Source: Macrostomum lignano
Lineage: Eukaryota
Length of the DNA: 64,000 nt
NCBI GenBank assembly: GCA_002269645.1
Contig: NIVC01000869.1
Coordinates: 1 to 64,000 of the forward strand
Reading direction: 5' to 3'
The notes beneath the pieces were generated by a model. It made no database searches. It saw nothing but the letters and a program-made list of their open reading frames with translations, and was not told the DNA's origin. Positions 1,095 to 62,020 of this stretch are shown here, in pieces. The stretch's first letter is position 1; each line of letters begins with the position of its first letter. The position numbers and the translations under genes were made by a program.

Positions 1095-1958
1095 TGTAGA
1101 GTGTTCTACCTCCCGTTAAAAAAGGTAAAAAGAAGATAATCGTATAATGCTACTATAAGTAAGTAAGTACACGCATGTGCGCCTAAGCTTTGAATGAATC
1201 ACGCTACCAGAAAAAGATGTTACCAGAATAATACGCCATGAGCCATTTTCCCCTTTTAGCGCAACACGTGAATTGTCATGATACTATTTTGGATCAAAAA
1301 CTTGTCTATAAATACAAGCGATCTGAAGCGGTACCGGAGCCATTCTCCCCACGGAAGAGGAGCGCTCCGAAGAGGAAGCCTTAGGAGGACTTCCTGATCT
1401 ACCAAGTCAATCGAGACTCGGTCGAGTTGTTGCGGTAAGCCTTCCTTATTTGCGCCCGTTGTGTTAGAGACGTCTCGCTCAAGTCTATTGAGACTTGAGT
1501 CTAATTGAGTCTGTTGAGACTCTTGAGTCTGTTTAGACTCCATTGGTTGCAGTCTCCAGAAGGACTGCCCCTGATAGATCTTAGAGGACTATCAGTGGTT
1601 TCCGGAGCTATACCTAGAGTGCATAGAGGCACTGCTAGAAGAAGGAGGCTTAATTTAGACCGCAGTTTGGCGCAGGGTACCCATTGTTGCTACGAGGCCT
1701 CTGATTGGTCCTGACGGAAGATACCGGCCGGAAGAACTTATCGGAAGTACAAGAGGAACCAGGACCAGAGCAACTGAAGAATCAAGGCGCCTGATCTACG
1801 AGATCTACTGACAAGTTCCTAGCGAGAACTACTCAAGAAATTCAAATCCGGATTAAAGGTAATTGAATACCTTCGTTTGACTTACTGGGTTGCCTAGCTG
1901 TTGAGCTAGAAGTGATTGTTCCTTGATTATCGAAAGTCGGGTAATAAGGAACACATCA
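1095..1958 (+). repeat. 5' LTR (864 bp)
   Basis: Starts TGTAGAGTG and ends ACACATCA. Repeated at an offset of 9740; the only difference I noticed is A1416 vs G11156. Confidence 0.97.
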
Positions 1959-1960
1959 AT

Positions 1961-1978
1961 TGGTGATCTCGCCCTCTC
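1961..1978 (+). promoter_or_regulatory. Candidate primer-binding site (tRNA unassigned)
   Basis: TGGTGATCTCGCCCTCTC begins 2 nt after the LTR end; TGG is complementary to the tRNA CCA end. Confidence 0.6.
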
Positions 1979-2674: not shown

Positions 2675-3850
2675 ATGGCGCGGCGCAATCCAACGGTACA
2701 CAGAGACATCAAAGAAACGGTCGGTACTTTCTCGATGGAGAAAGATTTTAACACATTTGTCGACCATTTTGACCTGGTATGTAGGGAATACAACCTACAA
2801 AATCCAGAGAAGGCACAGCTGCTGCCACCTCTTCTCCAAGGTACTGCGCGAGAAATTTACGGCAAGCTGGATGCGGCAACACAGCAAAATTATCCAGCAC
2901 TAATCATTCAACTGCGCGCGCATTTCAACCGTTGCGGCACAAACAGATCAGTGCTGCTGCACAAGTTGCATAACAGAAGGATGCAAGCAACAGAATCCTT
3001 CCTCGCCTTTGTGGACGATATCCGCCAGATAATTAAGGCACTGCATCAGCCACCGCTGCAAGCTGCGGACCAACCACCACTGGGAGCGGCAGAATTGGCC
3101 GCCAGAGAAAGACAACGATTGATGGATCGTGAACAAAACCTCATCCTGCACGTAATAAACAACGCACAGCCGTCACTTCGGGATAGACTTTTGCGTGAAA
3201 ATATCGAAACCGAAGAAGACCTTTTGCGTTGCGGAATGCAATGGGAAGCCAGTGCCCCATTAATGACGACAGGCAACAATGAAGTGCAGAAACTGACGCA
3301 GCAATTAAACAAGTTAATGCAGCACCAGACAGCTGCTATCGCCGAACAAAAAAGACGAAATGAACAAGCCTCAGCCAGATGTTACTACTGCGGACAAGAA
3401 GGACATTATCAGATTAATTGTCCTCATTGGTCAACAAGATACGACAAGCCGCGACAGATATTCAACAATCAGAAGCCGCAGAAACCATGGCAGCACTATC
3501 AAAATCGCCAACAACAAGGAATGAGACGCTTCGGAAATGATAGACGCTTCGGAAATAATGACCGCTCCGGAAATGATGGCCGCTTCGGAAACGAAGGCCG
3601 CTTCAGAAGTAATGGCTACAGGCCACGCAACGTCAGATACACACAAAGACAGCCGACGCAAGCAATGCCACGATACGCGAATGCCATCACGTACACACCG
3701 GAAAATGAACAGCAAGAACAGCAAGTGTTCACAATTGACGACTTGGAAATGGACTTCACAGTCCCGGAACTTGACATCAGCTTGATCGAAAAGAAGACGA
3801 CGCACGAGGACAACACTGACAACACGAAGAGACGAATGAAACCGAAATGA
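2675..3850 (+). CDS. gag: Gag (capsid, CCHC zinc knuckle, RFG-rich basic tail)
   Basis: 391-aa ORF with CYYCGQEGHYQINC (C-x2-C-x4-H-x4-C, 3380-3421) and a Gypsy-like capsid N-terminus. Confidence 0.9.
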   Translation: MARRNPTVHRDIKETVGTFSMEKDFNTFVDHFDLVCREYNLQNPEKAQLLPPLLQGTAREIYGKLDAATQQNYPALIIQLRAHFNRCGTNRSVLLHKLHNRRMQATESFLAFVDDIRQIIKALHQPPLQAADQPPLGAAELAARERQRLMDREQNLILHVINNAQPSLRDRLLRENIETEEDLLRCGMQWEASAPLMTTGNNEVQKLTQQLNKLMQHQTAAIAEQKRRNEQASARCYYCGQEGHYQINCPHWSTRYDKPRQIFNNQKPQKPWQHYQNRQQQGMRRFGNDRRFGNNDRSGNDGRFGNEGRFRSNGYRPRNVRYTQRQPTQAMPRYANAITYTPENEQQEQQVFTIDDLEMDFTVPELDISLIEKKTTHEDNTDNTKRRMKPK

Positions 3851-4548
3851 TCAAATTAAAAGAGACCACCGGAGACAGCAGAGAAAACAGGAAGAAAGTA
3901 AATCACAAGACAAGGGAGGAGGCGGAGAGCGACATCGGCAACGAAGAAAAGATGAAAACCGGCGAAGAAAACAACTATGAATCGACAACAGTGGATGACG
4001 ACAAAACGAGCATGAAAGACAAAGAAATGAAAGAAGAAGAAGAATGTAGAAGTTACGGCAACGACCACGACTGCGAGGTGCGTGATGACACGAACGACTA
4101 CCAAGCCGAAAGAGGAATGCAGGAAGAACCGAGAGCGGAGAATCTAAGTTCCGACAGCGATCAAGGCTACGAAATACAATGGAAAGATGAAGAAATGGAA
4201 AAAGAACAGGTGAAAGAAAAGCCGAGTTCCGACAGCGACGAATGCTACGAGATCCGATACAAACGAAATGGTGAAGCCTATATTCAAACGGTCGACTACA
4301 AGACAGAGAAAAGATACCAAACGCAATGGAGTGAAACAACGGAAACATCGGAAGAAGCCGCAGACGAAGATAATGAAATAACCAAAAAGCAAAGCGAATC
4401 AGAAGCCTTCCGCCTGGATCAGCCAATGGAACAACCGAAAGAATATGATGCGGACATGGAAGATAACGAATGGCGATCGCAGCCAATGCAGCAAGGACAA
4501 CGGCAAAATCCAAGAAGTGGAAAAACTGGCTATTCTGGATCATCGTGA
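3847..4548 (+). CDS. Acidic low-complexity spacer ORF between Gag and Env (probably part of the polyprotein)
   Basis: 233-aa E/D/K-rich ORF in the -1 frame from gag; its ATG overlaps the gag stop (ATGA, 3847-3850). Confidence 0.55.
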   Translation: MIKLKETTGDSRENRKKVNHKTREEAESDIGNEEKMKTGEENNYESTTVDDDKTSMKDKEMKEEEECRSYGNDHDCEVRDDTNDYQAERGMQEEPRAENLSSDSDQGYEIQWKDEEMEKEQVKEKPSSDSDECYEIRYKRNGEAYIQTVDYKTEKRYQTQWSETTETSEEAADEDNEITKKQSESEAFRLDQPMEQPKEYDADMEDNEWRSQPMQQGQRQNPRSGKTGYSGSS

Positions 4549-6380
4549 TACTACTGATAGCAGTAGTCGCCAAAGCAACGGCAACGGAAAAGCCAATGAT
4601 TTGTCCAACGGATGCGCATATCCAACCGATGATCTACAAGATACCAACCGACATCAAATGCAGTTACTTCAAGACAAACCAGACAAAACCAAAGAAGATT
4701 ACACTCGATCTCTACAAGGCTAACATCAAGAAGCATCGACAACACGGGATAGTATGCTTCAGAGACAAGCACCTGGTGGAAAAAGTTTGCGCGGACAATG
4801 GAACCGGATCCGATTTAAACAACATGAGCTACATGTGTCGCACGCGGAATGCCTACAATGGAATCAAACACTATTTTCAAAGGATGGTGAACTGGAACCA
4901 GATGAGAAGGTCGGCAACGCACAGCTGTTCAGAACAAAGAATTCAGCCAACGGTCGATATATTCACTTCTTCGGAAAATGGAAAGAATATATGGCACGCA
5001 ACAGCTACTTGATCAGAAATATTCCATTCTACTACAATCCGTACGAGAAAATGGAATCGTTACAGCTGCAACTAAGCGAATGTCGATACAGTGAAGGATG
5101 GTGTCCAACGCCGATTCTACGGAAGGAAGAACTACACAGTCTACCACTGAGTCCAACATATCATCAAGACTATCGATGGCAGATTGAGCACAGAGCACAA
5201 TCACACTATGAGGAACCGTACAAATCACGACAATATTTCTTCGCATGGAAAGTAGAGCCGGAAATTGACTGCAAGCTTCAAAAGTATCACAAAGTGGAAG
5301 GAGGACTACTGTCGAATACGTTTTTGGCAAAGCAGGAGACTTGGCCTTGACGTTTCAAAAGAAGCCGGTTGAACAGGAACTCAAATGCAAGGATACGGAC
5401 AAGACGCTATTCATCTCGGAGCAAGAAATACCAGTCTACGTGAAGGATGGTGACAAACAAACCTTCCTGGCAATCATAAACGGAACATATCAGCAACAAG
5501 AGAGACAACGACGCGACATAGAACGTCCACGATTGGTGTCAAACCGACTGCTGTCAGCAAAGATCACGGCGCTGGATCACAACCTGCATAACCAGCTTAA
5601 CCACTTACATCGGTCACTGGTTCAGCTGACTTGCAAAATGCACGCAATCAACTTGAACTACGCAAGACAGAACTACTATGTCAACCCTACGATGACATTT
5701 CGCAAGATCACGGAATGAGAGAAGTTCTAGCAATTCCGATATATGGCATCTCCTGATATACAAGTGCACGCCGATACAGCACTTCAACATCTTACCGTCG
5801 AACACTCCAACAACTTGCTACGACAAGCCGAGAATTGAAGCATTCTACGAAGGCAAAAGGATACAAGGATTCTTGGACACGGTACACAACATCATCGTTG
5901 GAACCGCAATACCAAGACCTTGCACCACTGCAGCAAACTACTATCAACTGGACGATGCACTACATGTCATTACAACGACAGGAACGACAGCAACATCACA
6001 GAACCGAGTGATTGTCGATGAAACGTACGACATGGAGGATTTGAAGATACGATTCAACAGAACGAAGTACACACCATTCGCCGATATCCAACTCGATGAG
6101 ATAACGCCAGGATGGACCATCAACGACTTCTTACAAGCGTTCATCACTCAACGAAAGATGATTCGTCAACTCTTCACACGAGAGAATAAGGAACAGGCAC
6201 AAGCAGTTTCCCGTCCTTGTGTCGATGGACAACGCCATCCAATCGTTTTGGACAAACAGCTTCTTGGAGCTGCTTAACGGAAGAGGCAGCCTATATCAAG
6301 GCTTCATCTTCTACAGCGCCTGCGTTGTTTGGATAGTCACGACGATCTTTATCATCTCGTCGATAGTACGATGCTTCAGC
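4470..6380 (+). pseudogene. env: Envelope/fusion glycoprotein-like gene, frameshifted in this sequence
   Basis: Hydrophobic signal/anchor WLFWIIVILLIAVVAKATA (4527-4586), Cys-rich ectodomain in consecutive overlapping ORFs, furin-type RQRR (5503-5514), N-glycosylation sequons (NQT, NGT), and second TM FIFYSACVVWIVTTIFIISSIV (6303-6368). Confidence 0.75.
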
Positions 6381-9300
6381 AACACTTGTCCCACAGCGAA
6401 ACGAACAGTGAACGCCATCATGCAGAAGATACCAAGGGAAGAAGACAACAACTTGGAATTGACAGAGGATGCACGTCAAGAAACTCAAGGACAGCCGACA
6501 CCATCAACGCGAATGTATCCATCGATTCCGACAACACCAACAGCACCGAGAATTCAGCCACCTACTTATCAGCCTGAACAACACGAGCCAAAATGGCCGG
6601 AAAACTACGTCTGCACGCTACACGCCGAGATTGGCAAAGCAATGGCTCAGGTCATTGTCAACAACTTGCCATGTCGAGCACTACTGGATTCAGGCAGCTC
6701 GATCACAGTCATCTCGCAACAATTATGCAACAAGCTACGACTCGCGGTACGACCAGCAGCAATCGCAGTTGCAGGAGCAGGAGGACATTCGCTCAACATC
6801 CTAGGAAAAGCAGATATTGACTTGAAAATTGCTAATAAACAGCTGACGGTCCCGACGTACATCATCGACAGACTACCAAACCAAGACGTCATCGTTGGAA
6901 TAGACACGTTCAAACAGCTTCGACTACCATTGACCTTCGACTTCAACAAGCAAACGTTTAGGATCGACGCGGTGGAGCAACCACTGATCAATCAGATTCG
7001 AGTACTACCGAAAGTAACTCTGCAGCAAGATGTCATCATCCAGCCTGAAAGCGCATGCTGGGTCAGAGCGAAAACGACCAGCGCGGCAGATGAAGCAATG
7101 ATATTTGATCCACACAGGAGAGTCACGGCAAAACATCAAATCATGATGCCTACGGCACTAGTGCTGGTTGCAAAGGATAAGCAACTGCCAGTACAAATCT
7201 TCAACCCGAACACAGAAACGGTTCATCTACGACAAGGAATGTGCATCGGTCATCTCAACACCCAAGCATCGGTTATGCTGATTGAACAAGCGACTCCACG
7301 ACTAACAGAGGAAGAATTTCAAAAGAAGATCAATTTGGATGACAGCCCGATTACGGAACAGCAAAAGAGGAAAGTTCGACAGCTGTTGTGGAAGTACAAC
7401 GAAGCCTTCTGCCATCATGATTACGACATCGGACGAGCCAAGGACATCAAACAGGAAATCAAACTTCTGCCGCACACGGAACCAATTCAGTGCAAGCCGT
7501 ACCCGATCGCCAAGCATCTGCAACAACACTTTGACGAAATCATCGATAAAATGCTAAAGCACGGCATCATCAGCAAAGCTATTTCGGCTTACTCCTCACC
7601 GTGCCTACTGGTACAGAAGAAGGAGACAAACGAAAGACGACTCGTATGCGACTTCAGACTGTTGAACAAGTACATACCGACGGATCAGCAAAGCCTACCG
7701 AAGATCTCCGAACTACTAGCAAAGCTCAACACGGCAAAATTGTTCACGGTGTTCGACCTACGTCATGGATTTTGGCAAATTGAAATCGAGAAAGAGTCAC
7801 GACAGTACACGGCTTTCAAAACCTACAATGGACAAGTATACGAGTACAATCGATCGCCGATGGGACTTAGCAACAGCCCAGCAACGATGAGTCGACTAAC
7901 AGCATACATGCTAGCAGGATGCACGAACCTGCTGCACTATGTCGACGACATTTTAGCCTACGGAGAGGATTTCGAGCGACTCTACGAAGCTACGGAGAAG
8001 GCCCTAGCGCTCATTCAACGCCAAGGTCTGAAGCTACAACCAACTAAATGCAAATTCTTCCGAGACAACGTGCGTTACCTGGGACATCAGGTGACAGCCA
8101 AAGGAATCTCACCGGACCCAGACAACGTGGAAAAGGTGAAGAAGTTTCCTACGCCAACCAGTATAACGAAGGTCCAATCATTCCTTGGACTTGCGCAATA
8201 CTTCAGGAAGTTCTTACCTAACTTCGCAAAGACAGCAAAGCCACTGTACGACCTGCTCAAGTTCGACAAATGGAAGCAAGACAACTGGACACAGAGACAA
8301 CAGGAAAGTTTCGACGAAATCAAACGACAGCTGACATCAGACGCACTGCTACAGCATCCGGACTTCGACAAGCCCTTCATCATCGAGACAGACGCCTCAG
8401 GAACGGGACTCGGAGCAGTCCTACTACAGGAAACCGAGGACAAGAAGGAACGACCTATTGCCTACGTCAGTCGAGCACTCAAACCAAATGAAACAAAGTG
8501 GTCAGCTACGGAACGAGAGCTACTAGGAGTCTTGTTCGCCCTGCGACAGTTTCATTACTACATCTATGGTTCTCCAATACAGACGATAGTACGCACGGAT
8601 CATGCACCATTGACCTACGTCGTAACTACAAAAGGACAGACCAACAACCGACTCATCAGGATGACACTCAAGATCCAGGATTACAACTACAAGCTCGTCT
8701 ACAAACCAGGAATTACCAACAAAGCCGCGGACGCCCTGTCAAGAGCCTATGAAGTCAACGCCATTCATCCAATCCCTAACATCAAGGAGCTGGTGGATGA
8801 AACCGAGCGCGACAACTTCTACCAAGCGGTTAAAGACGACGACAAGAACATCAAACTCAGTCCCATGGAACGAAAATTCCTACGCAAGCAACGACAACAC
8901 CTAACAATCAATAAGTCACGGCTCTACTGGATGAGCGACAATAAACCCAAGATCTACATACCATATTCGTTTCGGCAAGCAATTCTCAACGAGCTACACG
9001 ACAACCCACTCGCTGGACACCTGTCGGCAGCAAAGACCATCGCGAGAGTGGAACAATACTACTTTTGGCCAACTATGTACGGCGACATCAAGCAGTATTG
9101 CAACAACTGCCATTCATGTGCTGCATCAAAGACAGGACGACGACAGAAACCGCAGCTACAGTCCATTCCGAAGTCGACTACAATGGACTGTCTAAGCATC
9201 GACATCACCGGACCGCTACCACCGAGCTGTCTCCAGGGCATCGCCTACACCTACATTCTAACCGCCTTGGATATCTTCTCGAAGTTTGCTATCGCCATAC

Positions 9301-10151
9301 CGATACCGGACATCACAGCTCAGACAGTGGCAATGAGTTTCTTCAACGAAATCATTTGCAAGTACGGCACGCCGAAGAACCTCACATCGGACAACGGATC
9401 GCAGTTTACATCGCAACTGTTTCAGCAAGTCGTAAGGATTCTCAACATTACGCAGATCTACACATCGACCTACAATCCGAAGGCAAACATGGTTGAACGG
9501 TTTCACCGCAACCTGCACGAGATGATTACACATTTCGCGCACCAACAGCCGGAAGACTGGATCATCTACCTGCAATCTGTAACAATGGCCTACAACAGCG
9601 CTATTCATCGATCAACGGACAATACGCCATTCTTCCTAATGTTTGGACGAGACTTCCAACCGCCGAATCTGCTCGCACAGCAATTGCTACCATCGCAGTA
9701 CGTGGAAGTACCGACTTCCATTCAGAAATTCGTCACGCAACTACACCTCGCATGGAAGATCGCCAAGCACAACATTGACAACCAGGTGGCTCTGACCACC
9801 GGCAACGACGCGAGATCGACAACCCTGACGGCCGGCGACATCGTCTACCTACACTACCCGCCACAGCAGACGCATAAACATGCACAGAAGTACAAAGGAC
9901 CCTATCGAGTGGTCCAACTAACGTCACCAACAACGGCACGCCTGGCTAATGTACAAGATCCACATCAGCACCAGTTCTACGTACACATTCATCGACTAAA
10001 GAAGATCAACACTGACACAGCGACGTTTCTACCGACATTAGACAACGCTGATCGCACGCGTTCAACGAACCGCCACATCGCGACGAAGCACGAGGAGACT
10101 CAAACGACAGATGTGAGCCAGCCACATGGCTACAACCTACGACCACGCTAG
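6219..10151 (+). CDS. pol: Pol polyprotein (Env TM/tail-protease-RT-RNase H-integrase)
   Basis: Uninterrupted 1310-aa ORF: LLDSGS protease (Asp codon 6687), YVDD RT (7938-7949), ETDASGTGLGAVL RNase H, HHCC, DITGP/DNGSQF/ERFHR integrase and a GPY motif. Confidence 0.97.
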   Translation: MSMDNAIQSFWTNSFLELLNGRGSLYQGFIFYSACVVWIVTTIFIISSIVRCFSNTCPTAKRTVNAIMQKIPREEDNNLELTEDARQETQGQPTPSTRMYPSIPTTPTAPRIQPPTYQPEQHEPKWPENYVCTLHAEIGKAMAQVIVNNLPCRALLDSGSSITVISQQLCNKLRLAVRPAAIAVAGAGGHSLNILGKADIDLKIANKQLTVPTYIIDRLPNQDVIVGIDTFKQLRLPLTFDFNKQTFRIDAVEQPLINQIRVLPKVTLQQDVIIQPESACWVRAKTTSAADEAMIFDPHRRVTAKHQIMMPTALVLVAKDKQLPVQIFNPNTETVHLRQGMCIGHLNTQASVMLIEQATPRLTEEEFQKKINLDDSPITEQQKRKVRQLLWKYNEAFCHHDYDIGRAKDIKQEIKLLPHTEPIQCKPYPIAKHLQQHFDEIIDKMLKHGIISKAISAYSSPCLLVQKKETNERRLVCDFRLLNKYIPTDQQSLPKISELLAKLNTAKLFTVFDLRHGFWQIEIEKESRQYTAFKTYNGQVYEYNRSPMGLSNSPATMSRLTAYMLAGCTNLLHYVDDILAYGEDFERLYEATEKALALIQRQGLKLQPTKCKFFRDNVRYLGHQVTAKGISPDPDNVEKVKKFPTPTSITKVQSFLGLAQYFRKFLPNFAKTAKPLYDLLKFDKWKQDNWTQRQQESFDEIKRQLTSDALLQHPDFDKPFIIETDASGTGLGAVLLQETEDKKERPIAYVSRALKPNETKWSATERELLGVLFALRQFHYYIYGSPIQTIVRTDHAPLTYVVTTKGQTNNRLIRMTLKIQDYNYKLVYKPGITNKAADALSRAYEVNAIHPIPNIKELVDETERDNFYQAVKDDDKNIKLSPMERKFLRKQRQHLTINKSRLYWMSDNKPKIYIPYSFRQAILNELHDNPLAGHLSAAKTIARVEQYYFWPTMYGDIKQYCNNCHSCAASKTGRRQKPQLQSIPKSTTMDCLSIDITGPLPPSCLQGIAYTYILTALDIFSKFAIAIPIPDITAQTVAMSFFNEIICKYGTPKNLTSDNGSQFTSQLFQQVVRILNITQIYTSTYNPKANMVERFHRNLHEMITHFAHQQPEDWIIYLQSVTMAYNSAIHRSTDNTPFFLMFGRDFQPPNLLAQQLLPSQYVEVPTSIQKFVTQLHLAWKIAKHNIDNQVALTTGNDARSTTLTAGDIVYLHYPPQQTHKHAQKYKGPYRVVQLTSPTTARLANVQDPHQHQFYVHIHRLKKINTDTATFLPTLDNADRTRSTNRHIATKHEETQTTDVSQPHGYNLRPR

Positions 10152-10271
10152 AGTTTAGAGAACAACCCCGTGTAGTGACCGGGATAAAGAATAGCACTAC
10201 AGCTTCGCAAGCTTGTCGTAAAAGGCGACTAATCCGAGCGACACAAAGACAGCGACAAATTGACAACAATT

Positions 10272-10706
10272 ATGGGCAACGCACTGTCGAAACAGGCGCC
10301 CCAGCCTCAGCAGCTATATGACTGCCCGATATGTTTAACTGATGACTTGGCTGTCAAGCCACCGACTATTTGCATCAATGGACATAAAGTTTGCGGACAA
10401 TGTTTAAGTGATTCACACTATATTCAGCCCTGGCAGAGTTGTCCCCTCTGTAGAGAAAGTTTGCGACAATGCGCCTATTGTTATTCTTGGCGCACGTTTC
10501 AATATGGTAACCATCAACATTTTATTTGCATGCACTGTTTGAAGCAAACCGCTAGTAGGGGCGTTATAGGATGCCCCTTATGTAATAGTATGCCGCGAGA
10601 CTGCACGTTTCGAAAGTGGTGTCGTATCAAACCTGATGCCACCCGATGTCTACGCGATATTCGAGTTTTGACCGCAATATGTACTGAAAAGTTTTTAGAG
10701 TTTTGA
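10272..10706 (+). CDS. Accessory tandem RING-finger protein with N-myristoylation motif
   Basis: Starts MGNALSK. C-x2-C-x12-C-x3-H-x2-C-x2-C-x12-C-x2-C fits RING-HC; a second unit reads CAYC...HQH..CMHC...CPLC. Lies inside the element, between pol and the PPT. Confidence 0.75.
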   Translation: MGNALSKQAPQPQQLYDCPICLTDDLAVKPPTICINGHKVCGQCLSDSHYIQPWQSCPLCRESLRQCAYCYSWRTFQYGNHQHFICMHCLKQTASRGVIGCPLCNSMPRDCTFRKWCRIKPDATRCLRDIRVLTAICTEKFLEF

Positions 10707-10819
10707 CCAAACCCTCGCTTCTCTAGACGCGCACAAAATCAATTGTTTATTTCCTATATTAACTGATCACCACAGAATTTTATTATTTTATTGTTAAAAC
10801 TCGGGACGAGTTTTTTCGT

Positions 10820-10830
10820 AAAAAAGGGAG
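10820..10830 (+). promoter_or_regulatory. Polypurine tract
   Basis: AAAAAAGGGAG, 4 nt upstream of the 3' LTR TG. Confidence 0.75.
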
Positions 10831-10834
10831 ATTT

Positions 10835-11698
10835 TGTAGAGTGTTCTACCTCCCGTTAAAAAAGGTAAAAAGAAGATAATCGTATAATGCTACTATAAGT
10901 AAGTAAGTACACGCATGTGCGCCTAAGCTTTGAATGAATCACGCTACCAGAAAAAGATGTTACCAGAATAATACGCCATGAGCCATTTTCCCCTTTTAGC
11001 GCAACACGTGAATTGTCATGATACTATTTTGGATCAAAAACTTGTCTATAAATACAAGCGATCTGAAGCGGTACCGGAGCCATTCTCCCCACGGAAGAGG
11101 AGCGCTCCGAAGAGGAAGCCTTAGGAGGACTTCCTGATCTACCAAGTCAATCGAGGCTCGGTCGAGTTGTTGCGGTAAGCCTTCCTTATTTGCGCCCGTT
11201 GTGTTAGAGACGTCTCGCTCAAGTCTATTGAGACTTGAGTCTAATTGAGTCTGTTGAGACTCTTGAGTCTGTTTAGACTCCATTGGTTGCAGTCTCCAGA
11301 AGGACTGCCCCTGATAGATCTTAGAGGACTATCAGTGGTTTCCGGAGCTATACCTAGAGTGCATAGAGGCACTGCTAGAAGAAGGAGGCTTAATTTAGAC
11401 CGCAGTTTGGCGCAGGGTACCCATTGTTGCTACGAGGCCTCTGATTGGTCCTGACGGAAGATACCGGCCGGAAGAACTTATCGGAAGTACAAGAGGAACC
11501 AGGACCAGAGCAACTGAAGAATCAAGGCGCCTGATCTACGAGATCTACTGACAAGTTCCTAGCGAGAACTACTCAAGAAATTCAAATCCGGATTAAAGGT
11601 AATTGAATACCTTCGTTTGACTTACTGGGTTGCCTAGCTGTTGAGCTAGAAGTGATTGTTCCTTGATTATCGAAAGTCGGGTAATAAGGAACACATCA
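10835..11698 (+). repeat. 3' LTR (864 bp)
   Basis: Copy of 1095-1958, followed by the CCGG TSD. Confidence 0.97.
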
Positions 11699-11899
11699 CC
11701 GGCTTTTGGCTTCCGGTCAGAGTCCCTGAAAACTGATGAATCAGCTGTTGGTAGTTCATTGTATGAGCTTTTCCCGAATATAAACTGTGAGCAGATCAAG
11801 GCTGCTGCTCCGAGCAGTCGGTGAGTAGCCAAAGATGTCACGCAGTTGAAATCTAATGCCATGTAGAAAATTAGCTTTCTGAATTGGGAAGAAAATTGC

Positions 11900-12676: not shown

Positions 12677-12808
<132 letters not shown>

Positions 12809-12934: not shown

Positions 12935-14014
12935 TTACACTTTTCTCAAGTCCTTCTCATCCACCCAGACAGTGGACTTGTAGCCGGCCCACTTGACGAG
13001 ATATCGGATCTTACCCTTCCGTTTCTCAGTCTTTAGAACCTTCTCGATTACATACAGCCGCTGTGAGTCTGGAACAGCTTGCAGCTCATGCTCGTGGAAG
13101 AGGCCTTGAATGTCTTCTCCCTTCATATCTCGAATCCTGTACATGTAGGGATAATGCTTTGGTGCCCTAGACACTATGGTGTACACCTCTTCGCTCCAGT
13201 TCGCCTCATATCCCTTCCTGAAAAGTCTAGGTGCATTGGAAATACGCACTGATTAGCTTTCACAGAACTTCGGGTTTCTCAGTTTCTCAACTGTCTCAAT
13301 CGCTTTCCCATCTTAAAGGTTCATCCACACTTCAGTCTCGTTTGCTTTGCTGACATTCATTGGTGCAGTCTTGATGCTTCTGTGGAAAGTATTGTTATAG
13401 GACTTGACCAGTTTAGGCAGCACATCAAGCCATTGCAGAGTGCTGTTGTAAGTAAAGTAACGCCACATCTTGCTTTTTAAAGTTCGATTCCATCTTTCTA
13501 TAATGGCTGCTTTGTGCTCACTGCTAGTTGGAAACGCCAGAATCTCCCGGTCTATGCAGAACTGGCGAAAAATTGCGTTGACAAACTCCTTTCCCTGATC
13601 TGTGCGGACAGTGCGCGGCTGCCGCTTTGAGCTCTTCAGCATGCTCTCAAACGCAGATTTCACTTCTGCTGCGCTTTTAGACTTCAGTGCTCGGGCCATT
13701 GCAAATTTAGATAAAACATCAATGCAGGTGAGAATTTATTTATGCCTGCGATTATACTTTGCAAATGGAATCATTTCCACCAGATCCATCTCCCACTGAT
13801 CATCAATGGCCCTCACTATTATTGGCGCCCTTGGAAATCGTACTCTAGCTGGCTTATGCAGAGTGTGTACTGACTGCTGACTTAGCCACTGCTCAATGCT
13901 CTTGACTCCGATATGATGACCTCTTTTTCGCAGTTCATATCGCAGCTTTAAAGAACTACAATAGCTTGCTCGTTGATTTGGGTTGAAATAATTTTTTTCC
14001 ATTTTCAGAAACAA
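12935..14014 (-). pseudogene. Polinton/Maverick retroviral-like integrase with C-terminal chromodomain
   Basis: DQWEMDLVEM, RTDQGKEF, IIERWNRTLK, FRKGYEANWSEE and YVIEKVLK...YLVKWAGY. Broken into three ORFs by stops or frameshifts. Confidence 0.85.
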
Positions 14015-26500: not shown

Positions 26501-28560
26501 AGTAAAGCAATGCAAGCACACTAATGTACATATTAACTATTGAGTGGCTGAGAGAATTGCAGCTTGAGAAATACTAAGCTTGAGACTGGGTTACAGCATA
26601 CTTTCCGCGACACCATAGAACTTTCTCCCTACGACCTCCGAAAATCTCGGTGGCCCTGCCGTCGCCCTGATGGAATTCGACCACGCAGTCTACGTGCTGA
26701 CGGCTGGATCGCTGCTCCTCGCCTCCAACAAGACCAGTCTGTTCAGCCCTAGCCCAAGCGCCTGCTGCCTGCCGGTGCTGCAGCGACTCGACGACCGCCT
26801 GGCAGCTGGAGAAATTCGCAGTTGCGTGGTGGACCGGCGCCAGGCCACAGCTTTTTTCAGCGTGCCGCACGGCTGCAAGCTGATCAGCCTGGCCTTCCCT
26901 GTGCCTCCGAGTGACAGTGAGGCGGCCAGCGCTGCCACCTCGGGCTGCCCCGTGCTGCAGGAACGCCTGTACGCTGTTGCGAGCTGCTCTGATGGGGCCG
27001 CGGCTGTGCCATGTAAGACATCCCGTGGTTAACATCATAATACTCAGTGGTGTGGTGTATCGCCTGACGCTAAAGGCCTTCATAACTTGCGGTGAAGATG
27101 AGCTGAAGCTGACCGATGTGAAATGTTGTTATAAAAATGCCGTGATTCAATAGTGAAAGAACACGGAGAAAACGAGTATTGCGCGAGCAATTAAGAGGAA
27201 TAATTTGATCCGTAATTTATTAAAAACTCAAAAATTCTATGCCGATGCATTTTGACCAGTTCGGTCATCTTCAGGGCAGCTTTTAAAGAAGACAGTAAGT
27301 TATATTCGTACATGTTTAATAACAACACGATTTACAGTATAATTTGTGCAACAAAAGTTAGGCTGGATAGAAGAGGGGCAGATAGAGAAAATAGGGTGCA
27401 ATAGTGTACACCCCAACCCAGAGCACGTTGAGTTAACGGCTGGCACCCCCGTAGCTAACTGACAGTTCAAATTAGGTTTTTCCGAGCTTTAACTGTTCAA
27501 AAAGAGTCTCAGCGTTCAGCTCCGGATCAATTTTTGCATTGAGGTGTCTCAGGATGTCTGCAGCTTGAAGTCCCATTTCCCTCTACCGCTTACTGCAGGT
27601 GTCGTTAATACGAGGGGTGTCCCAAAAGTCGGTGCACTTTCTTTTCTACAGCCTTTTCTGACCGATCAGAAATATTTATTTTGTAGCAGTTAACAAGAGA
27701 ATTATCTGCCCGTTAAAATGAGTTTCTGTTTATTTCTGTATCTGCTGGCATTCTTGAGATATGAGCACTTTTCTGCCCAACCCCTGGGCTACTTCTACAA
27801 ATTGCCATAGACTACGAGCGTAAAGCTTTGTACCTGATGCACGAAACAACGAAACATTCAACGAATCAACAAAACATCCGCAACATGAAAGCTGAGGAAA
27901 GAACATTCAAAGTTAATCATCAACATCATCAACATCAACATCGGTCAGAAAAGGCTGTAGCGAAGAAAGTGCACCGACTTTTGGAACACCCCTCGTAAGT
28001 TTCAGTGCTCTGAAGATCAGATTCTCCTATATAGTGAAAATCAAGCGACACCTGTACACTAGGATTAAGGAGCATTGGACTATGAGTAAAAGATCAGCAA
28101 TCCAAGAACACCTGCTCACTCACGTGTGATTCGTGAGAACGGTCGCAATTTCTATGCTCCAATAACTTCATTTCCCAAAACTCTAGCTGAGAAATACGAG
28201 CGTAGATTTAAAAAACCTTTTCTAATTATTTAAGAGCTAATATTGGGTGCAAATTTGAAGTGCCTAAATATTGCAACTCAACACTTTCTTGCAGCTGCTA
28301 TGGCTTGGGACCCCACCACTGAGCACCTGCTGGTGCTGGAGTGGGGCTCCGAGAACAACGGCGTCCTCATCACCGTGGATTTCTCACCCGACGATGGAAT
28401 CAGCAGCTCCAGACCGGATCGAGAAACCCCGCAGTCCGAGGCGTGGTTGCTGCAGCGGACTTCTGAGAAGCTGCCCGTTGTGAAGACCTTTGGTCCGCAG
28501 GTGCTGAACCCGATGGCGCAGCGGCTGGGTCTGAAGATCTCAGGGGGTCATGCCTGCTGA
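23540..28560 (+). CDS. Unidentified multi-exon gene (approximate exons 23.54-23.80, 24.19-24.40, 24.78-25.03, 25.2-25.42, 26.65-27.01 and 28.30-28.56 kb)
   Basis: GC-rich open segments bounded by AG/GT in AT-rich flanks, e.g. MEFDHAVYVLTAGSLLLASNKTSLF and AMAWDPTTEHLLVLEWG. No family recognised and boundaries are approximate. Confidence 0.5.
27611..27995. mobile_element. Tc1/mariner-type MITE (385 bp)
   Basis: About 55-bp TIRs (CGAGGGGTGTCCCAAAAGTCGGTGCACTTT and its complement) flanked by a TA TSD on both sides. Confidence 0.9.
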
Positions 28561-29715
28561 GTCACAATGGAATTCGACTCCAGTGCCAGCGACCGATCGA
28601 CTGACTACCGTTGTTTAGGATTTATCTGTCTCATTGTTTCTATTCTCCCGTTAAACGCGTATATATCATACACCCCATGATTATTTTGAACCAATGCAGT
28701 TCCACAGGATCAGATAAACAGTTTTACTCATTCGCTGAAAGTAATAAAATCTTCTAGTTAAAGTTAAAAAACGATTAATCCTCCCGAACCCAAAGAACCC
28801 AAAAAAATTGCTGTCTATTTTAGTACTCTAAATTTAAATTCTGTAAGCAAGGAAGAAGCCCAAGCGTGCCGTCAAACACAGGCGAATCTAACACTGGAAC
28901 GATTTTAGAACGTGATGTAACCGCCCTTGACGTCCGTCCGCTCCACTCGGAGGCGAACGTATGACCATAGGGGGCAATGACCGTAGGCTGCCGATGACCG
29001 GGCAATGACCTGACGGACCTCCAGCACCAGACAGTCCCGCCCACATGATTTATAGCTTTGGTGACCAGAGGGCCAAGGACCCACATGGACCCACCTGTAG
29101 CCAAGGTGCAATAGTTGGTCACTCGGTCATAGCATGACCGAGTGGCCGCCACCACTCCATGTGACCTGGCGCACCTGGATCTTACTACCAGACCTCTCGA
29201 GGCTAGAGCCCCGCCTGGATTGGTTACTAGGGGATTTAGGCTAACAGGGGAGACGCATGCAGCCGATCGAGTACAGGGACTCTGCTTGGAGCATGATCGG
29301 GAACTCTGGGCTCAATCTGGAGGATTTCTCAGCAGGGGATCCTTTGTGGCTGTGAACGAGGCGGACTTACGGTTTCAATTACTAAGAGTAGTGTGAGGCG
29401 AACATGTACTAGCTATAGTTTAGATTGCTCAGGGCGAAGGGACGCGTAAGCATGGGGTTGCAACCTTCCTACTGCCATTCTGTGCCAAGACCCGCTACTT
29501 CCCTCTACTACACGCACACGCGGACCCGCAGCATGCACACACAGGCGGGATTTGTACGGGGAGAGGCCACTAGCTTACCCAAATGCTTTTCCACCCAGGG
29601 GGGTGCTTTACGAACCAAAGTTCAATCTTAAGATCAAACTTAGGATTGAGTTTAGGATCGACGTGTTCTATGAAGATAAAAGTCGATCTTAGCTGGGATC
29701 CAACTTAGGTCTAAC

Positions 29716-31111
29716 CAAAGAGTATTGAGGTCGCCTAGTATAGAGTGCCAATAAGGATGAAAATCTGAAGCCGATTTTTAGAATCCACCCACCCCCTCCG
29801 GTCACCAAGCTGTTTAGTCTATGGCACAAGTTGTGGCTAGAATGGTGTACAAAGCCGATGCTCAGAAATATACATAGAGTGCATGAGAAAAATACAAGTA
29901 GCTAATGTAGCTGGACGAATACCATGTATGCTTAAAACATCCTCAAGACTTTATTTCTGTATCTATACTGTAACCGTACGTACGATGATTGCATTGTGTA
30001 AGGAGAAAAGATGTTGAGCAGGATTCTTGCAGCAGAGTCAGAAAGACAAAAGCATAAGTAATAAACAGGCAGAGTAAAGGTGCAGCAGTGGGAAAAGCAA
30101 AAAACAAAAGTAATAAACCTGCAGAGCGAAAGAAAACAGTACTATGAGCAAATAAGCAGGAAGTAATGTAGCAAACATGTCAAGTAAGAGAGGAGATGAG
30201 TCATAGCCTCGATCGCCAGAAGAATATCAAAAAATTCATGAAGATTATTGTTCTGTGCAACCGATTCCGCACAGATAGACCATGAAGCTTGTCGCGACTG
30301 GCCTTTTCGATGTGTTTAGAACGCAGGAGGAAAACGAATTCGGCAAAGAAGGAAATTAGCTGCGGTCCGTGGTTGTTGCTTAAACTGTTGCAGGTCAGTG
30401 AGTCAATGAGTTGCAAGTCCATTGCTCGCCACTCTCTCAGACGATCGACTTCCTTGAAAGGCAGACGAAAGAAGGATACAGATGCATCAGAAACGCAGTT
30501 ATTGCAATTAGCTACCGCGCACTTTAGTGGCATGGCTGTTGTTGTTCAGACGTAAGGGCTATATGGCATGGCTGTTACGGAGTTGTGTATCGACGACGGC
30601 AACTGAGTCTGGTGACTGAGCGATGTTGTCTTGCTTATTTGATACATGTGGCGGCCAGACTGTACGCGACCGGCAGCACCAGTGCAGCCGCACTGGAAAC
30701 CCCCCAACCTCTGCCTAGCTGAGGTGGGGTGGTTGCGCACCGCGCTAGCCGGCTCGCTAAGCCAGGGGGTTGGCGTAGCCAATCACGCCACGCCACCTGT
30801 TTCGCACCTCCCTTGCCTTGGCCCCTCAATCTGGCGTTGTTTGTAAATATATAAATACCCGCGCAAAGCAGCACAAACTCTTTGCTGCCATTCCATCTAT
30901 TGAAACAAAAAGGCCTTCCGCCTCATACATGCATTTTCTAAGTGTGAAATGTCTTATATTTCTGAGCATCGGCTTTGTACACCATTCTAGCCACAACTTG
31001 TGCCATAGACTAAAAAGCTTGGTGACCGGAGGGGGTGGGTGGATTCTAAAAATCGGCTTCCGATTTTCATCCTTATTGGCACTCTATACTAGGCGACCTC
31101 AATACTCTTTG
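29716..31111. mobile_element. Non-autonomous P-superfamily element with THAP remnant
   Basis: Long TIRs (about 160 bp, starting CAAAGAGTATTGAGGTCGCC) and an 8-bp TSD GGTCTAAC/GGTCTGAC (7 of 8 match). Confidence 0.8.
30201..30533 (-). pseudogene. Truncated THAP-domain ORF
   Basis: MPLKCAVANC...SFFRLP.....LREW matches the first half of a THAP domain; the distal C/H ligands are absent. Confidence 0.65.
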
Positions 31112-31540
31112 GGTCTGACCTAAGGGAAGATAAGATCGAACTTACGACTGGTGCGTTTTATCAAGAGAGACTGTCTATGACCAAAACTTTCATGGTCAAT
31201 CTTAACTTTAGGACACATCTAGAGTTGTCCTAAGTTTCAAGTCGCTATCTGAACAGCAAGAGCCGATCTTTTGGAATAAAATGCTTGCCGTTTTAATTGC
31301 TCGTCGTGCGACCGAGAGGCAAAGGATTCCTCGGGTTTCTTTCAGTCAAAACAGTCAATATATGCAATGCATCGGTTTGCGCGAGCCCGCGAGGGCTAAC
31401 CGCTGTTAGTGCAAGGGGGGCTGTTTGGGTGCTGGCTGTCTGGTGGGGTGGTGGGTGCGTTGGTGCGTGCGCGTGCCTTTTTAGGCCGCCACCTTTGTGG
31501 CTGCGCGGGGTTGCTCGCGGTTGAATTTTTTTGCTGAATC

Positions 31541-32632
31541 ATGGCAGATAGCCTTGTACTGCCCGCAACTAACAAAGCGCTACGAGAAGCCCTTAGTGAG
31601 CGCGGCCTGCCTACTAATGGCAATAAGCAAGAGCTAACAAGTCGTCTAAAACTCAGCATTGCCAAGGAGCTTGAGCGGCAGGCGTTGGAGCAGGACAGAA
31701 GCTCATCTCGTCGTGCTCAAGATGACAAGACATCACCGACGAATGCGGGCGCACCCGAGCTAAGTCTGGCTCCACCTGAGGACGAGATGCTTCCGGCGGT
31801 GGGCGCCTCGGCCGAGGGTCGGGCGGCGACGGGAGGCGGTCTCGAGGATCAGCTGCGAGAGGCTGAACTGCGCATTCGGCTGCTGGACCTGAAAAAAAGA
31901 GAGGCTCAGCTCGAAGCCGAGCTCGCTGAAGCGCGTCACAGTGGCACGGCAGCTGCGAGAGAACGTGATCAGACTCCCGGTGAGTGGCATGATTTGGTTG
32001 GCGAGTGTATACTCGGGCAGGCTGGGGCTGCAACTTCGCATGCTCAGGCGCCGGCGGTGTACAGAGTCGTTGATTTTATCAGTGAGCGTAAGCGGAGACA
32101 AGGAAGCCAGTCTGTTGTGGGAGCGGCAAAGCCAGAGAGGTTGAGACACGTCAGTCCCGAGTCACTGTCGTTTGGCGATTTCATCTCCGGTAGCTGTAAC
32201 TTACTGGTGCAAATGCTGCGTGATGGCAAACTGCTGCGCATTGTTGATGGCAGAATCGATTCATCCGAGTTGATCGATCATCTCCGACATAACGCTAGAA
32301 TTGGTGACCTGCTAGATTTAGGCTTCGATCGCACTAAAGTCATGAGATATGATGACGAATGTCGGCTTCTCCAGCATGATGGAACGCGGTGGAGCGCTGT
32401 TAGCGCAGACCTGGGTCTGGTGGCAACACACTTGATGGCACCAACAAAAATGATAAATGCAACAGCGCCTAAAAAGCGAACGCAGCCACCTGTCTGTTTC
32501 GACTTCAACAGTCTTAGCGGCTGCAACAGAACTCACTGCCGCTTCGCCCATCAGTGCCGCAGGTGCTCACAGCCGCACTCTGAAGCCCGAGCCCACGCTG
32601 ATGGGGACCCGGGCCAATTTTCAAAAAACTAG
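31541..32632 (+). CDS. Ngaro ORF1 (gag-like) with SAP domain and CCCH-like finger
   Basis: LREALSERGLPTNGNKQELTSRL is SAP-like; CFDFNSLSGCNRTHCRFAHQCRRCSQPH is a C-terminal zinc finger. Confidence 0.8.
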   Translation: MADSLVLPATNKALREALSERGLPTNGNKQELTSRLKLSIAKELERQALEQDRSSSRRAQDDKTSPTNAGAPELSLAPPEDEMLPAVGASAEGRAATGGGLEDQLREAELRIRLLDLKKREAQLEAELAEARHSGTAAARERDQTPGEWHDLVGECILGQAGAATSHAQAPAVYRVVDFISERKRRQGSQSVVGAAKPERLRHVSPESLSFGDFISGSCNLLVQMLRDGKLLRIVDGRIDSSELIDHLRHNARIGDLLDLGFDRTKVMRYDDECRLLQHDGTRWSAVSADLGLVATHLMAPTKMINATAPKKRTQPPVCFDFNSLSGCNRTHCRFAHQCRRCSQPHSEARAHADGDPGQFSKN

Positions 32633-32640
32633 CGTGCGAG

Positions 32641-34539: not shown

Positions 34540-35333
34540 TCGAATGCCGCCTGAGATCGTTCAACAGTCTGCGTGTCCATGTCAGTGCACTGTCCAGCTG
34601 GTTCAAAGCCTGTGGTGCTGAGGACCTAACAAAACACCACCTGGTCTCACTGCTCGTTCGCGGCGCTAAACGGAGGATGGGCCAGCGACCAAGACGGAAG
34701 CTGCCGATCTCGCCTGCGATGCTGCTGTCTGTGAAAAACCGGCTTAACTCGAGCAGTTCGCTTGACAGAGTCTGCTGGCTTGTGACGCTTATTGCTTGGT
34801 GGGGGATGTTTCGGCGCTCCAGTCTCCTGCCCAGCCAGCAGTCCGCTTCACCGATTTCCGTCTCAGCCTTTCAACGCCACCCGAAGGGGGTTGTGCTCTC
34901 TGTCAGTTATGGCAAAACGAATCAGTTCGGCGCGAAGCTGCACCGGGTGTTGCTTCCAAGGCTAAAAGAAGGACATCCGCTTTGCCCAGTGGCTGCGCTA
35001 GAGGGTCACCTCCGTGTCAGCAAGCTTGGCTGCAGGCAGCCTGTGTTCTCCTACCAGTTGGCGAGCGGATCCTCTGTTGTCCTGTCTGCCTCAAGATTCG
35101 ACAGGTTCCTCAAGCGCTGCCTAGCAACGGCTGAGCAGGACGCTCGTTCTTTCTCAGCGCACAGCCTGCGCAGAGGTGGTGCCACCTGGGCCTACCGTCT
35201 CGGACTATCTGTTCAAGAGGTGAAGTGCATCGGTGACTGGCGAAGTGATGCTGTGACTGCCTACCTTCCATCTGCTGATTCTGTGCGGGCTGGTTCGCGT
35301 TTTGCTGGTGCTTTTAACGAGAGTTGCCTTTGA
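34290..35333 (+). CDS. Ngaro ORF3 tyrosine recombinase
   Basis: WGMFRRS, KTNQ, HSLRRGGAT and GDWRSDAVTAY give the R-K-H-x-x-R-W-Y catalytic set; overlaps the end of ORF2. True start uncertain. Confidence 0.92.
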   Translation: MPCGVFGSRVFCFCLPFFIFTGRLPATPTLGAAASSLLAAAYAPQSRRAISSAVRSWHSFCNENGTNPARSDRSVLLNYLAHLVECRLRSFNSLRVHVSALSSWFKACGAEDLTKHHLVSLLVRGAKRRMGQRPRRKLPISPAMLLSVKNRLNSSSSLDRVCWLVTLIAWWGMFRRSSLLPSQQSASPISVSAFQRHPKGVVLSVSYGKTNQFGAKLHRVLLPRLKEGHPLCPVAALEGHLRVSKLGCRQPVFSYQLASGSSVVLSASRFDRFLKRCLATAEQDARSFSAHSLRRGGATWAYRLGLSVQEVKCIGDWRSDAVTAYLPSADSVRAGSRFAGAFNESCL

Positions 35334-60998: not shown

Positions 60999-62020
60999 TT
61001 ACAATGCGTTCGTCGTTCTCGCTTGCTTCTCTATTTTACGGTACCGCTACGGTACGGTAATTCTCAATAGCCTATCATGTATAAGCAATGATGGGGGAGA
61101 GCCATGGAAAATGCTGGGATGACTCTGATCGCTGAAGTCAACGCAAAGCTTACTATACAGCTGCTTACCCAAGAGCCCCCTTGTGGGGTCTGACACCACC
61201 ATCTAGTGGCACTCCTGACATCATGAAGTGACACCTTTGACATTATAGCGGAACCATTATAGTACCATCAATTTGTACCTCTGACACCATCAAGTGCAGC
61301 ACTGCTTGCGCTGGTCAGCAACAGACCAGAATCTTACCTGGGTCTAAATCGGAACCTTCGTTTATCAAGCCGCTCCTGTCAGAGGGGTAAAAGTTGTATT
61401 GTTAGATTGCAAAGCTACATAAAACAGCATAAAAGTACTCAGTAGCCCCAAAACCGGCTGCGCTTACCCAGCATCCGGGACAGCCCCATCAACTCGATCA
61501 TAGGCGCCTGCCGGAGCATCGGATGCTGGCCCCACCCTAGAATGACATGGGAGACAAAACTGCCAGGGGAATGACGGCGAGCTCAGAGACATTAAAAAAA
61601 CTTCAGAAATGTCCATACCGGGCCTGCCGCTCGGCAGCCGCTCTTCGTCTCAACCGTTTCTTGTTCCGCTTTCTCTCAGCAGCCTGAAAGTGAAATGACG
61701 CCGTATTGTGAGCGGTGTCTTACCGCAGATGACCTCTGTAAACTCTGCTTAGTTACCTCGTGCTTTTTCGATGACTTCTCAGCTGATCGAGTTCGGTCTA
61801 AAGCGATTTAAGGAAAAATTTTCAGCTTTCAGATCGTAATGAATTCAGAAAGGCACCCTGGCGCAACCCCACAACCAGCGATGGGGCAATTCTGCTCATT
61901 CCGCTGACTGCTGAGCACATCTCCTCTCCTGCGCACGCACACATGCACCCGCTCACACAGGATGTACAGCGACCATGCCTTTGTAATCATCAGGCATGTA
62001 CATGATTATTACAGCTATTA

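Follow-up and report, generated by a model that had tools for sequence, protein, structure and literature searches.

The gene content of animal LTR retrotransposons is mostly regarded as gag and pol, plus env at most, and few accessory genes have been documented (CERV). What, then, is encoded by a frame of 144 codons that lies behind pol in an LTR retroelement of the flatworm Macrostomum lignano? The frame is part of a stretch of 64,000 nucleotides (contig NIVC01000869.1, positions 1 to 64,000), which is called the window in the following. The initial annotation described it as an intact gene for a myristoylated protein with tandem RING fingers, placed where env normally sits and acting either as a matrix factor reminiscent of arenavirus Z or as an E3 ligase directed against host defence.

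A shortened RING gene in a flatworm errantivirus

The ATG-to-TGA frame starting with MGNALSK was found as described (10272-10706, + strand; Table 1), flanked by the pol stop (10151) and the 3' LTR (10835-11698). Its 144 codons contain six CxxC motifs. When the interior of the element was shuffled, none of 300 shuffles gave a frame of at least 100 amino acids with at least four CxxC motifs, so the window frame is not a chance product. The first finger (RING1, C18 to C60) has the C3HC4 spacing of a canonical RING-HC, in agreement with the initial annotation, with Pfam RING matches below the cut-off (E 0.002-0.003). The second finger (RING2) had been read as having a His in the third ligand position. 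Instead, the window has a glycine (Gly79) at a site where Cys is found in 23 of the 24 proteins of the alignment and in 29/29 other copies. We conclude that Gly79 is a copy-specific loss of a Cys ligand, which leaves RING2 of this copy incomplete, and that the second finger of the family is an ordinary unit of C3HC4 order.

The frame had also been called intact. It stops, however, at the Trp-Pro motif that is conserved in the family, and about 40 bp of remnant coding DNA follow. The distance from the ATG to the polypurine tract is 554 bp in the window versus 1,605 bp and 1,564 bp in two sisters that are intact and have a complete first RING gene (RING-A). Since the similarity switches subfamily from about 10595 on, the window being closer to another subfamily from there than to its nearest sister, the copy is a recombinant. 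It is a shortened RING-A without the helical domain and without all downstream paralogues, and we regard its frame as very probably a relic of RING-A.

The host element has the LTRs, the primer-binding site (PBS), the polypurine tract (PPT) and the PR-RT-RH-IN order of a GAG-ENV-POL errantivirus (Metaviridae). Its LTRs differ at 1 of 864 bases which, together with the CCGG duplication, the PBS and the PPT, indicates a young insertion. The pol of the window is 100% identical to a UniRef retrovirus-related polyprotein of Macrostomum lignano (P0012). The proposal that the RING frame occupies the slot of env did not hold, because an env-like gene is present between gag and pol; the RING ORF is therefore an extra gene. 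One of the sister copies has its env region as a single open frame fused to pol, and this frame matched Pfam PF24664 (Monjiviricetes_fusion) with E 1e-5, below the cut-off. The PDB sequence search with the env-like protein gave no match. At 2675-6400, the window showed up to 11 frame-shifting indels when compared to the sisters, some of which possibly lie in the sisters or in the assembly.

Errantiviruses of the GAG-ENV-POL type with an HSV/gB-type env have been reported in nematodes, bryozoans and flatworms (PMC13524379, main text and supplement as far as accessible). Among them, Platyhelminthes_Rhabditophora_Mlig_errantivirus_2 is typed ENV_HSV and listed with an LTR of 863 bp, a span of 10,591 bp and 16 copies. 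The window element measures 864 bp and 10,604 bp, respectively, and has the same 12-nt PBS and the same gene order, a comparison in which features were matched and not sequences aligned. We conclude that the element is a Ty3/gypsy GAG-ENV-POL errantivirus with features matching the published flatworm family. The catalogued length is that of the form from which the RING genes are deleted. The main text of PMC13524379 has no match for RING, accessory, zinc finger or splice; the RING cassette, the pseudoknot and the acceptors described below were not found in its readable parts.

Table 1. Coordinates in the window of the errantivirus copy, its signals and the RING frame behind pol.
Feature	Position	Strand	Remark
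Target-site duplication CCGG	1091-1094, second copy 11699-11702	.	
5' LTR	1095-1958	+	864 bp, TG...CA; 1 mismatch to 3' LTR
Candidate splice donor in LTR (G/GTAAG)	1434-1435	+	one X8 contig joint; weak, run type guessed
Candidate intra-LTR acceptor (AG/)	1720/1721	+	
Primer-binding site	1961-1972	+	12-mer identical to that of the published family (PMC13524379 supplement)
gag (CCHC knuckle)	2675-3850	+	
env-like region, putative class III fusion glycoprotein	4470-6400	+	between gag and pol; several frameshifts in window copy
Late-domain-like cluster YPSI / PTAP / PPTY	6516-6569	+	Env cytoplasmic tail, ahead of protease
pol: protease-RT-RNase H-integrase, open	6642-10151	+	
Conserved non-coding element: H-type pseudoknot and two short hairpins	10167-10229	+	63 nt
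Pseudoknot stem	10167-70/10180-83	+	loop 10171-77 pairs with 10195-10201
Invariant ACAG/C	10199-10203	+	end of pseudoknot
Truncated RING-A ORF	10272-10706	+	144 of about 222 aa; myristoylation-type N-terminus
RING1 of window RING-A	10323-10454	+	
RING2 of window RING-A	10470-10583	+	Gly at ligand 3 (10506-10508)
Untranslated remnant of RING-A helical-domain coding sequence	10707-10744	+	about 40 bp
Approximate junction of deletion	10745-10779	+	about 1.0 kb (rest of RING-A and whole second gene)
Polypurine tract	10820-10831	+	
3' LTR	10835-11698	+	

Elsewhere in the window, three overlapping long ORFs of 364, 645 and 358 codons lie at 31538-35330 (+), which we take to resemble a DIRS-type tyrosine-recombinase retrotransposon. 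An ORF of 359 codons (53374-54450, +) presumably resembles a THAP domain at its start, and a 128-aa fragment (13313-13699, -) presumably the integrase core of a Polinton/Ginger-like element. Two inverted-repeat pairs at 29715-31112 and 27609-27997 (158 nt, 99%, and 58 nt, 95%) are probably non-autonomous DNA transposons. A 40-bp satellite array with a 10-bp sub-periodicity (61851-64000) and an (AG)n microsatellite (12680-12805) were also seen.

The intact cassette of the sister copies

The genome (G000) was searched with the protein, and 150 matches were scored out of 202 candidates. Since the assembly of the species is described as redundant (PMC12801592, main text), the copy counts may be inflated. 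Among the matches listed, 35 had RING-A in an open frame of at least 200 codons without a stop, 23 were full-length copies of the short type of the window and 21 were of a second shortened type (1-90 type). The intact sisters encode a RING-A of 222 aa, followed by a paralogue (B) of about 210 aa. Three RING genes were found in the C391, C1063 and C272 types and two in the distant C301 and C583 types, where pol has a DNA identity of about 70%. The genes are intron-less, encode about 200-222 aa and lie one after the other between pol and the 3' LTR; the paralogues share about 20-40% identity with one another. Each protein consists of RING1, a compact RING2 and a helical bundle of about 100 aa with the Trp-Pro motif. 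In the tree, the first-position class stands apart from four downstream classes. The real find is the intact cassette of the sister copies, the window copy itself being only a relic.

Homologues outside the genome were searched in several ways. The word-index search with alignment A1 had 587 candidates, none of which received a score, and P0001 as a query matched only itself and no metagenome locus. In the HMMER scan, which covered 1.84 billion representatives, 10 matches were obtained. Four of them (P0001, P0005, P0006 and P0010) are Logan proteins without a name that share the double finger, and the Trp-Pro helical domain was present in four of five (P0001, P0005, P0006 and P0010/P0011); P0001 groups within the first-position class of the tree. 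Judged from these sequences, the double-finger family exists beyond the G000 genome. Another match, P0003, is a Siah-type protein. The UniRef entry P0002, a 'RING-type domain-containing protein', is a gene model in which second-position RING genes have been stitched to pieces of translated LTR, with joins at the same donor and acceptor sites as were found in the element.

Selection was analysed by pairwise dN/dS after Nei-Gojobori, with pairs that are non-independent and were chosen among open frames. For RING-A, the ratio was 0.12-0.30 in 9 of 12 pairs (3 saturated) and for the downstream genes 0.14-0.25 in 9 of 10 pairs (1 saturated). Five of 6 within-clade pairs had a ratio of 0.10-0.16 for the C-terminal part that the window lacks. 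Between the intact subfamilies, purifying selection acts on the RING genes, and the helical domain that is absent from the window is as constrained as the RINGs. A pol RNase H pair with a ratio of 0.39 was set aside as an artefact of a frameshift in that copy. Between two subfamilies, the dS of RING-A was 1.46 versus 0.32-0.85 for pol, which suggests that the cassette has been exchanged as a module.

The element is a recombining mosaic, which would also be compatible with a neutral fragment captured from the host. A partial RING-A without element DNA within 10 kb, possibly a stray or co-opted fragment, was found at L076 (6099-6377, G000:C356, with a twin on C1588). We regard the capture as hardly credible, since it is contradicted by the purifying selection on the family. 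Moreover, 14 of 15 further RING-bearing stretches adjoin 3' or LTR DNA of the element, and no intron-containing donor gene was seen in the part examined of the 150 and 147 matches listed. The initial annotation had named a one-off host capture as a possible objection, and these data speak against it.

The short lineage of the window behaves differently from the intact family. Early stops were found in 17 of 23 window-type copies from the matches listed, most of them downstream of both fingers. The commonest one is at codon 125 (16/23) and leaves both fingers whole, whereas one copy has a stop at codon 82 and the copy L004 a frameshift. Zinc ligands were lost in four of the 23 copies, including the window, and Gly2 in two; 5 of the 26 nonsynonymous variants fall on zinc ligands. 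Counted as distinct variants, 26 nonsynonymous and 2 stop changes stood against 16 synonymous ones in the RING sequence, whereas the integrase of the same copies had 21 against 106 (Fisher p 1e-8). The ratio in the short lineage was about 0.45-0.74, depending on the transition bias. Neutrality was rejected at a bias of 1 (p 0.014) and kept at 4 (p 0.18) or 8 (p 0.33), so that some residual or inherited constraint is possible. Decay in sister copies, which the initial annotation itself had named as evidence against its reading, was thus found for the lineage of the window, and the data do not support the 144-aa copy as the functional unit.

A functional product of 124-144 aa with two RINGs, acting as a minimal ligase or as a dominant-negative, would be compatible with the position of the codon-125 stop and with the ratio below 1 at low transition bias, and the lineage is young and abundant. 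We consider such a product distinctly improbable, since the losses of ligands and of Gly2, the stop at codon 82 and the frameshift in L004 argue against it. In addition, the lost domain is under a constraint equal to that of the RINGs, and the parallel deleted lineage stops inside RING2. This second, independent lineage without the cassette, to which the 21 listed matches of the 1-90 type belong, is represented by L066 (8855-9280, G000:C29); in the single copy read, the stop is at codon 71.

The reverse arrangement was also observed. At L064-L065 (G000:C301:248900-253500), a derivative without most of env and pol has kept gag, the pseudoknot and two intact RING genes and is the mirror image of the window lineage. 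Dense nests of family copies in the same orientation and solo LTRs were seen at L053-L059 (G000:C2121:1-70000) and also on C87, C1130 and C3033. They contain many of the intact cassettes and appear reminiscent of a piRNA cluster or a heterochromatic nest.

RNA signals in front of the RING genes

A non-coding element of 63 nt sits between the pol stop and the ATG of RING-A, with 95-134 nt from its start to the AUG. It matched at 61 of 63 positions in a subfamily in which the match over the last 300 nt of pol is 197 of 300. In 88/88 copies read, 6-7 pairs of its pseudoknot were kept. Only three sequence types with two compensatory changes were found, so the covariation rests on two events. In G000, the pseudoknot pattern was matched 101 times versus 0 for the reversed control, and 98 of the 100 listed matches lay just upstream of a listed RING-A match when the lists were compared by eye. 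A viral contig that matched the pattern was discarded as a chance hit, as it has no pairing partner. Rfam has no family for the element and returned only a chance miRNA fragment (E 7.4). The MFE folding of the intergenic stretch was unexceptional (z -0.55), by a method that cannot model pseudoknots.

The pseudoknot could function as an xrRNA, as an IRES-like element, as a structured acceptor or as a ribozyme. Plant-virus intergenic xrRNAs likewise form a compact pseudoknot with a stem-loop, placed ahead of a 3' ORF at a variable distance to the AUG, and yield coding subgenomic RNAs (PMC6299227, accessible part). Here the element differs in that it has no Rfam match, and the ACAG at the end of its pseudoknot could instead be a structured 3' splice site, which we consider possible. 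Read-through from pol into RING-A was rejected, as in-frame stops occur 13-41 codons upstream of the ATG and the spacing is variable.

A splice acceptor TTTAG at 10154-10158 had been proposed for the RING frame. This was not confirmed, as most sister types have TTTCG or other letters at this place. A YCAG was found at, or 2 nt before, the ATG in 23/23 distinct second-gene contexts from three paralogue classes, whereas it was present in 0/5 first-gene and 0/5 third-gene contexts. By its sequence, the second-gene YCAG would fit cis-splicing from the LTR or spliced-leader trans-splicing. In M. lignano, spliced-leader trans-splicing affects about 30% of the genes (PMC8629364, accessible part).

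Contigs of sequencing runs were inspected for such joints; none of the 19 runs listed is recorded as RNA, and 101 loose contig ends lie outside the listed joints. In one X8 contig, the LTR donor is joined to letters that start like the sequence behind the intra-LTR AG, which is a weak hint, and the exact 20 letters beyond this joint are absent from the loci compared. In the contigs of four runs on the sister element no LTR-to-RING joint was listed, though contigs cannot show its absence. Contigs of X8 and X17 run across the gene-2 acceptor. The 3' junction of the window type was present in contigs of X2, X8 and X17, which may be DNA and indicate presence only.

Predicted ligase activity and relation to known systems

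The alignment of 24 cassette proteins was inspected for catalytic features. Of the 16 zinc-ligand positions, 12 are invariant in 24/24 proteins and 3 more are kept in at least 90%. In RING1, C18, C21, C34, H38, C41, C44 and C60 are invariant. Across the whole protein, C57, C79, C86, P58, W147 and P148 are each present in at least 90%. RING1 ends with the motif CPxCR and has both the E2-binding Pro (P58) and a linchpin Arg (R61), which is invariant in 24/24; we take the linchpin position to be the one directly after the last CxxC of a RING. RING2 has a short first loop of 8 residues and no linchpin Arg. An Arg at the site found in RING1 is the catalytic linchpin of RING E3s (PMC12326332, accessible part), and its invariance points to a predicted E3 ligase activity of the cassette proteins. 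Pfam Sina_RING was matched by 21/24 members at E<=0.1 (best 3e-7), with the window and the full-length RING-A below the cut-off.

The AlphaFold model of a natural full-length RING-A had a pLDDT of 91.5 and a pTM of 0.82. Residues 13-64 were aligned to RING domains including TRIM21 and RNF146 with an rmsd of 2.0-2.4 over 46-53 residues. These matches are weak (Z about 4.2-4.3; Foldseek probability up to 1.0 but E>=0.02); for the TRIM21 RING, the rmsd was 2.3 over 48 columns with a probability of 0.98 and E 0.13. No fold match was obtained with the whole model at E 0.001 or Z 5. The helical domain (pLDDT 84.8) had no clear fold relative in the structure search, with a best Z of 6.8 and 6.0. Its similarity to the N-domain of ATP synthase delta/OSCP (rmsd 3.1 over 84) is within the common range of helical bundles, the search of BFVD gave a best E of 0.82 and that of PDB sequences nothing useful. 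These results are no evidence for a new fold.

In our preferred reading, which we hold to be reasonably probable, the window ORF represents the 5' part of RING-A in a state of decay, RING-A being the first gene in a selected 3' errantivirus cassette, and the intact proteins are putative RING E3 ligases, most likely directed against host factors. The ligase against host defence proposed initially is thus retained as the best reading for the intact family, with a dN/dS of 0.12-0.30 and the invariant linchpin Arg, but not for the 144-aa copy. Each full-length cassette protein would be a RING E3 ubiquitin ligase, in which RING1 would bind and activate E2~ubiquitin, and RING2 and the helical domain would provide structure and substrate choice. 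The myristoylation signal of one RING-A clade would direct the product to membranes. For gene 1, the conserved pseudoknot would define the 5' end or the translation of the RNA. The RNA for gene 2 would be spliced at the YCAG immediately in front of the ATG of this gene, with the LTR donor or by spliced-leader trans-splicing.

The likeliest substrates would be host restriction or silencing factors, and a somatic piRNA pathway is active in M. lignano (PMC4604429, main text, which does not name the element). From their sequences, an E3 activity of the cassette proteins is likely. Host proteins as targets are plausible by analogy, and the element's own proteins would fit equally well. We suppose that the products act in trans, because there are two independent, abundant lineages without the cassette as well as pol-deleted copies that have retained it. 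Such an action would explain how at least two independent lineages, one of them including the window, have lost the cassette and yet multiply.

The same RING evidence would allow for ligases or adaptors with the particle of the element itself as their target, either by ubiquitination of the Env tail or Gag for ESCRT budding or in the control of copy number or superinfection. The PTAP, PPxY and YPxI motifs on the Env tail imply a ubiquitin/ESCRT-linked budding (PMC3509680, accessible part), and one clade has a membrane-targeting N-terminus. However, two to three diverged paralogues suit several targets better than one self substrate, and the PPxY would already recruit host ligases of the Nedd4 type. 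We consider this reading unlikely.

Somewhat similar doubts apply to zinc scaffolds without catalytic activity that would work as regulators, for example as a Rev/CERV-like export or transcription factor on the pseudoknot RNA. The spliced accessory protein CERV of Cer1 has a Cys-rich loop that is needed for gRNA export (PMC10309623, accessible part), a conserved RNA structure adjoins gene 1 and the helical domain is without a clear fold relative. Against this, the linchpin motif CPxCR is invariant in 24/24 (the Pro in at least 90%), the fold of RING1 resembles E3 RINGs and CERV, which shares exons with gag, has a different architecture (PMC10309623). Such regulators therefore seem quite unlikely to us.

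The initial annotation had also noted the N-myristoylation-type start, and by sequence this stands for one clade of RING-A, where G2, S6 and a basic residue 7 are kept in four subfamilies. The motif MG-N-A-x-S-[KR] is conserved across them despite saturating dS. An MG start is absent from the C391 and C301/C583 RING-A clades, from P0001 and from all downstream paralogues. Since it is confined to a single RING-A clade, it would be a clade-specific gain. Arenavirus Z has 90-99 aa, and its defining features are myristoylation, a single RING and late domains at the C-terminus (PMC3509680). The window clade of RING-A resembles it in the myristoylation-type start at Gly2 and the RING, but RING-A has two fingers, a helical domain, 222 aa and an E3-type linchpin. 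Further, the cassette proteins lack late domains: no PT/SAP or PPxY was found in 24/24, with one YPxL-like string in one paralogue. The YPxI, PTAP and PPxY motifs are instead concentrated on the Env tail, where 11 of 13 distinct segments have all three and the two distant types have fewer, and the budding signals may ride on Env in a gag-env-pol polyprotein. No Pfam match to zf-P11 was obtained at E<=1 with the window ORF or at E<=0.1 with family members, and an Atlas row (0.84) is a lead only. RING-A thus differs from Z in size, finger number, late domains and the zf-P11 match. Because the binding of Z to the glycoprotein requires myristoylation and not the late domains (PMC3509680), RING-A could possibly be an Env adaptor. 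We nevertheless regard a myristoylated, Z-like matrix or budding protein as very improbable, because the motif is limited to one RING-A clade and the late domains are on the Env tail; lineages without the cassette also still multiply.

If the cassette proteins are ligases as in our preferred reading, the identity of their substrates would reveal which host factors restrict retroelements in a flatworm, and the active destruction of animal silencing factors by transposons would become directly testable. The intact and the cassette-less lineages provide a natural contrast for a public-goods test, and the conserved, unannotated pseudoknot is a possible new RNA element. A bolder picture, which we find doubtful in its entirety, is a 'complex' invertebrate errantivirus with a diversifying family of anti-defence RING E3s in an operon-like 3' cassette. 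In such an element, gene 1 would be expressed via an xrRNA-like pseudoknot and gene 2 via spliced-leader trans-splicing, and cassette-less cheaters such as the window lineage would share the products in trans with pol-less lineages that have retained the cassette. A description of an xrRNA-like pseudoknot in a retrotransposon was not found in the literature searched.

The element family, which is catalogued, and viral RING ligases are already known. A description of the RING cassette was not found in the literature searched, and the main texts of PMC13524379, PMC12801592 and PMC4604429 have no match for RING. Likewise, no prior annotation of the cassette or the pseudoknot was found; the supplements of PMC12801592, figure panels and Repbase are outside this scope and could hold it. 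Viral RING E3s dominate the matches of RING-A (BFVD best E 0.0036; ESM Atlas 0.91/0.90, weak). Those of herpesviruses (ICP0), baculoviruses (IAP), NCLDV/iridoviruses (RING proteins) and adintoviruses ('oncoid') share the fold of RING1, but the matches span one RING only, and the array of RING-RING-helical paralogues on an LTR retroelement is unmatched among them.

The nearest functional precedent for the cassette, by analogy, is CERV of C. elegans Cer1. It is also an accessory Cys-rich protein of a Ty3/gypsy element, and in the tree of PMC13524379 Cer1 is the sister of a flatworm HSV/gB errantivirus. According to its published description, CERV is set apart from the cassette, as splicing of gag exons gives rise to it and a pair of RINGs is absent (PMC10309623).

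The accessory proteins Vpr, Vpx and Vif of lentiviruses route host factors to ubiquitin as adaptors for host cullin ligases, whereas in the errantivirus cassette the element itself would encode the RING.
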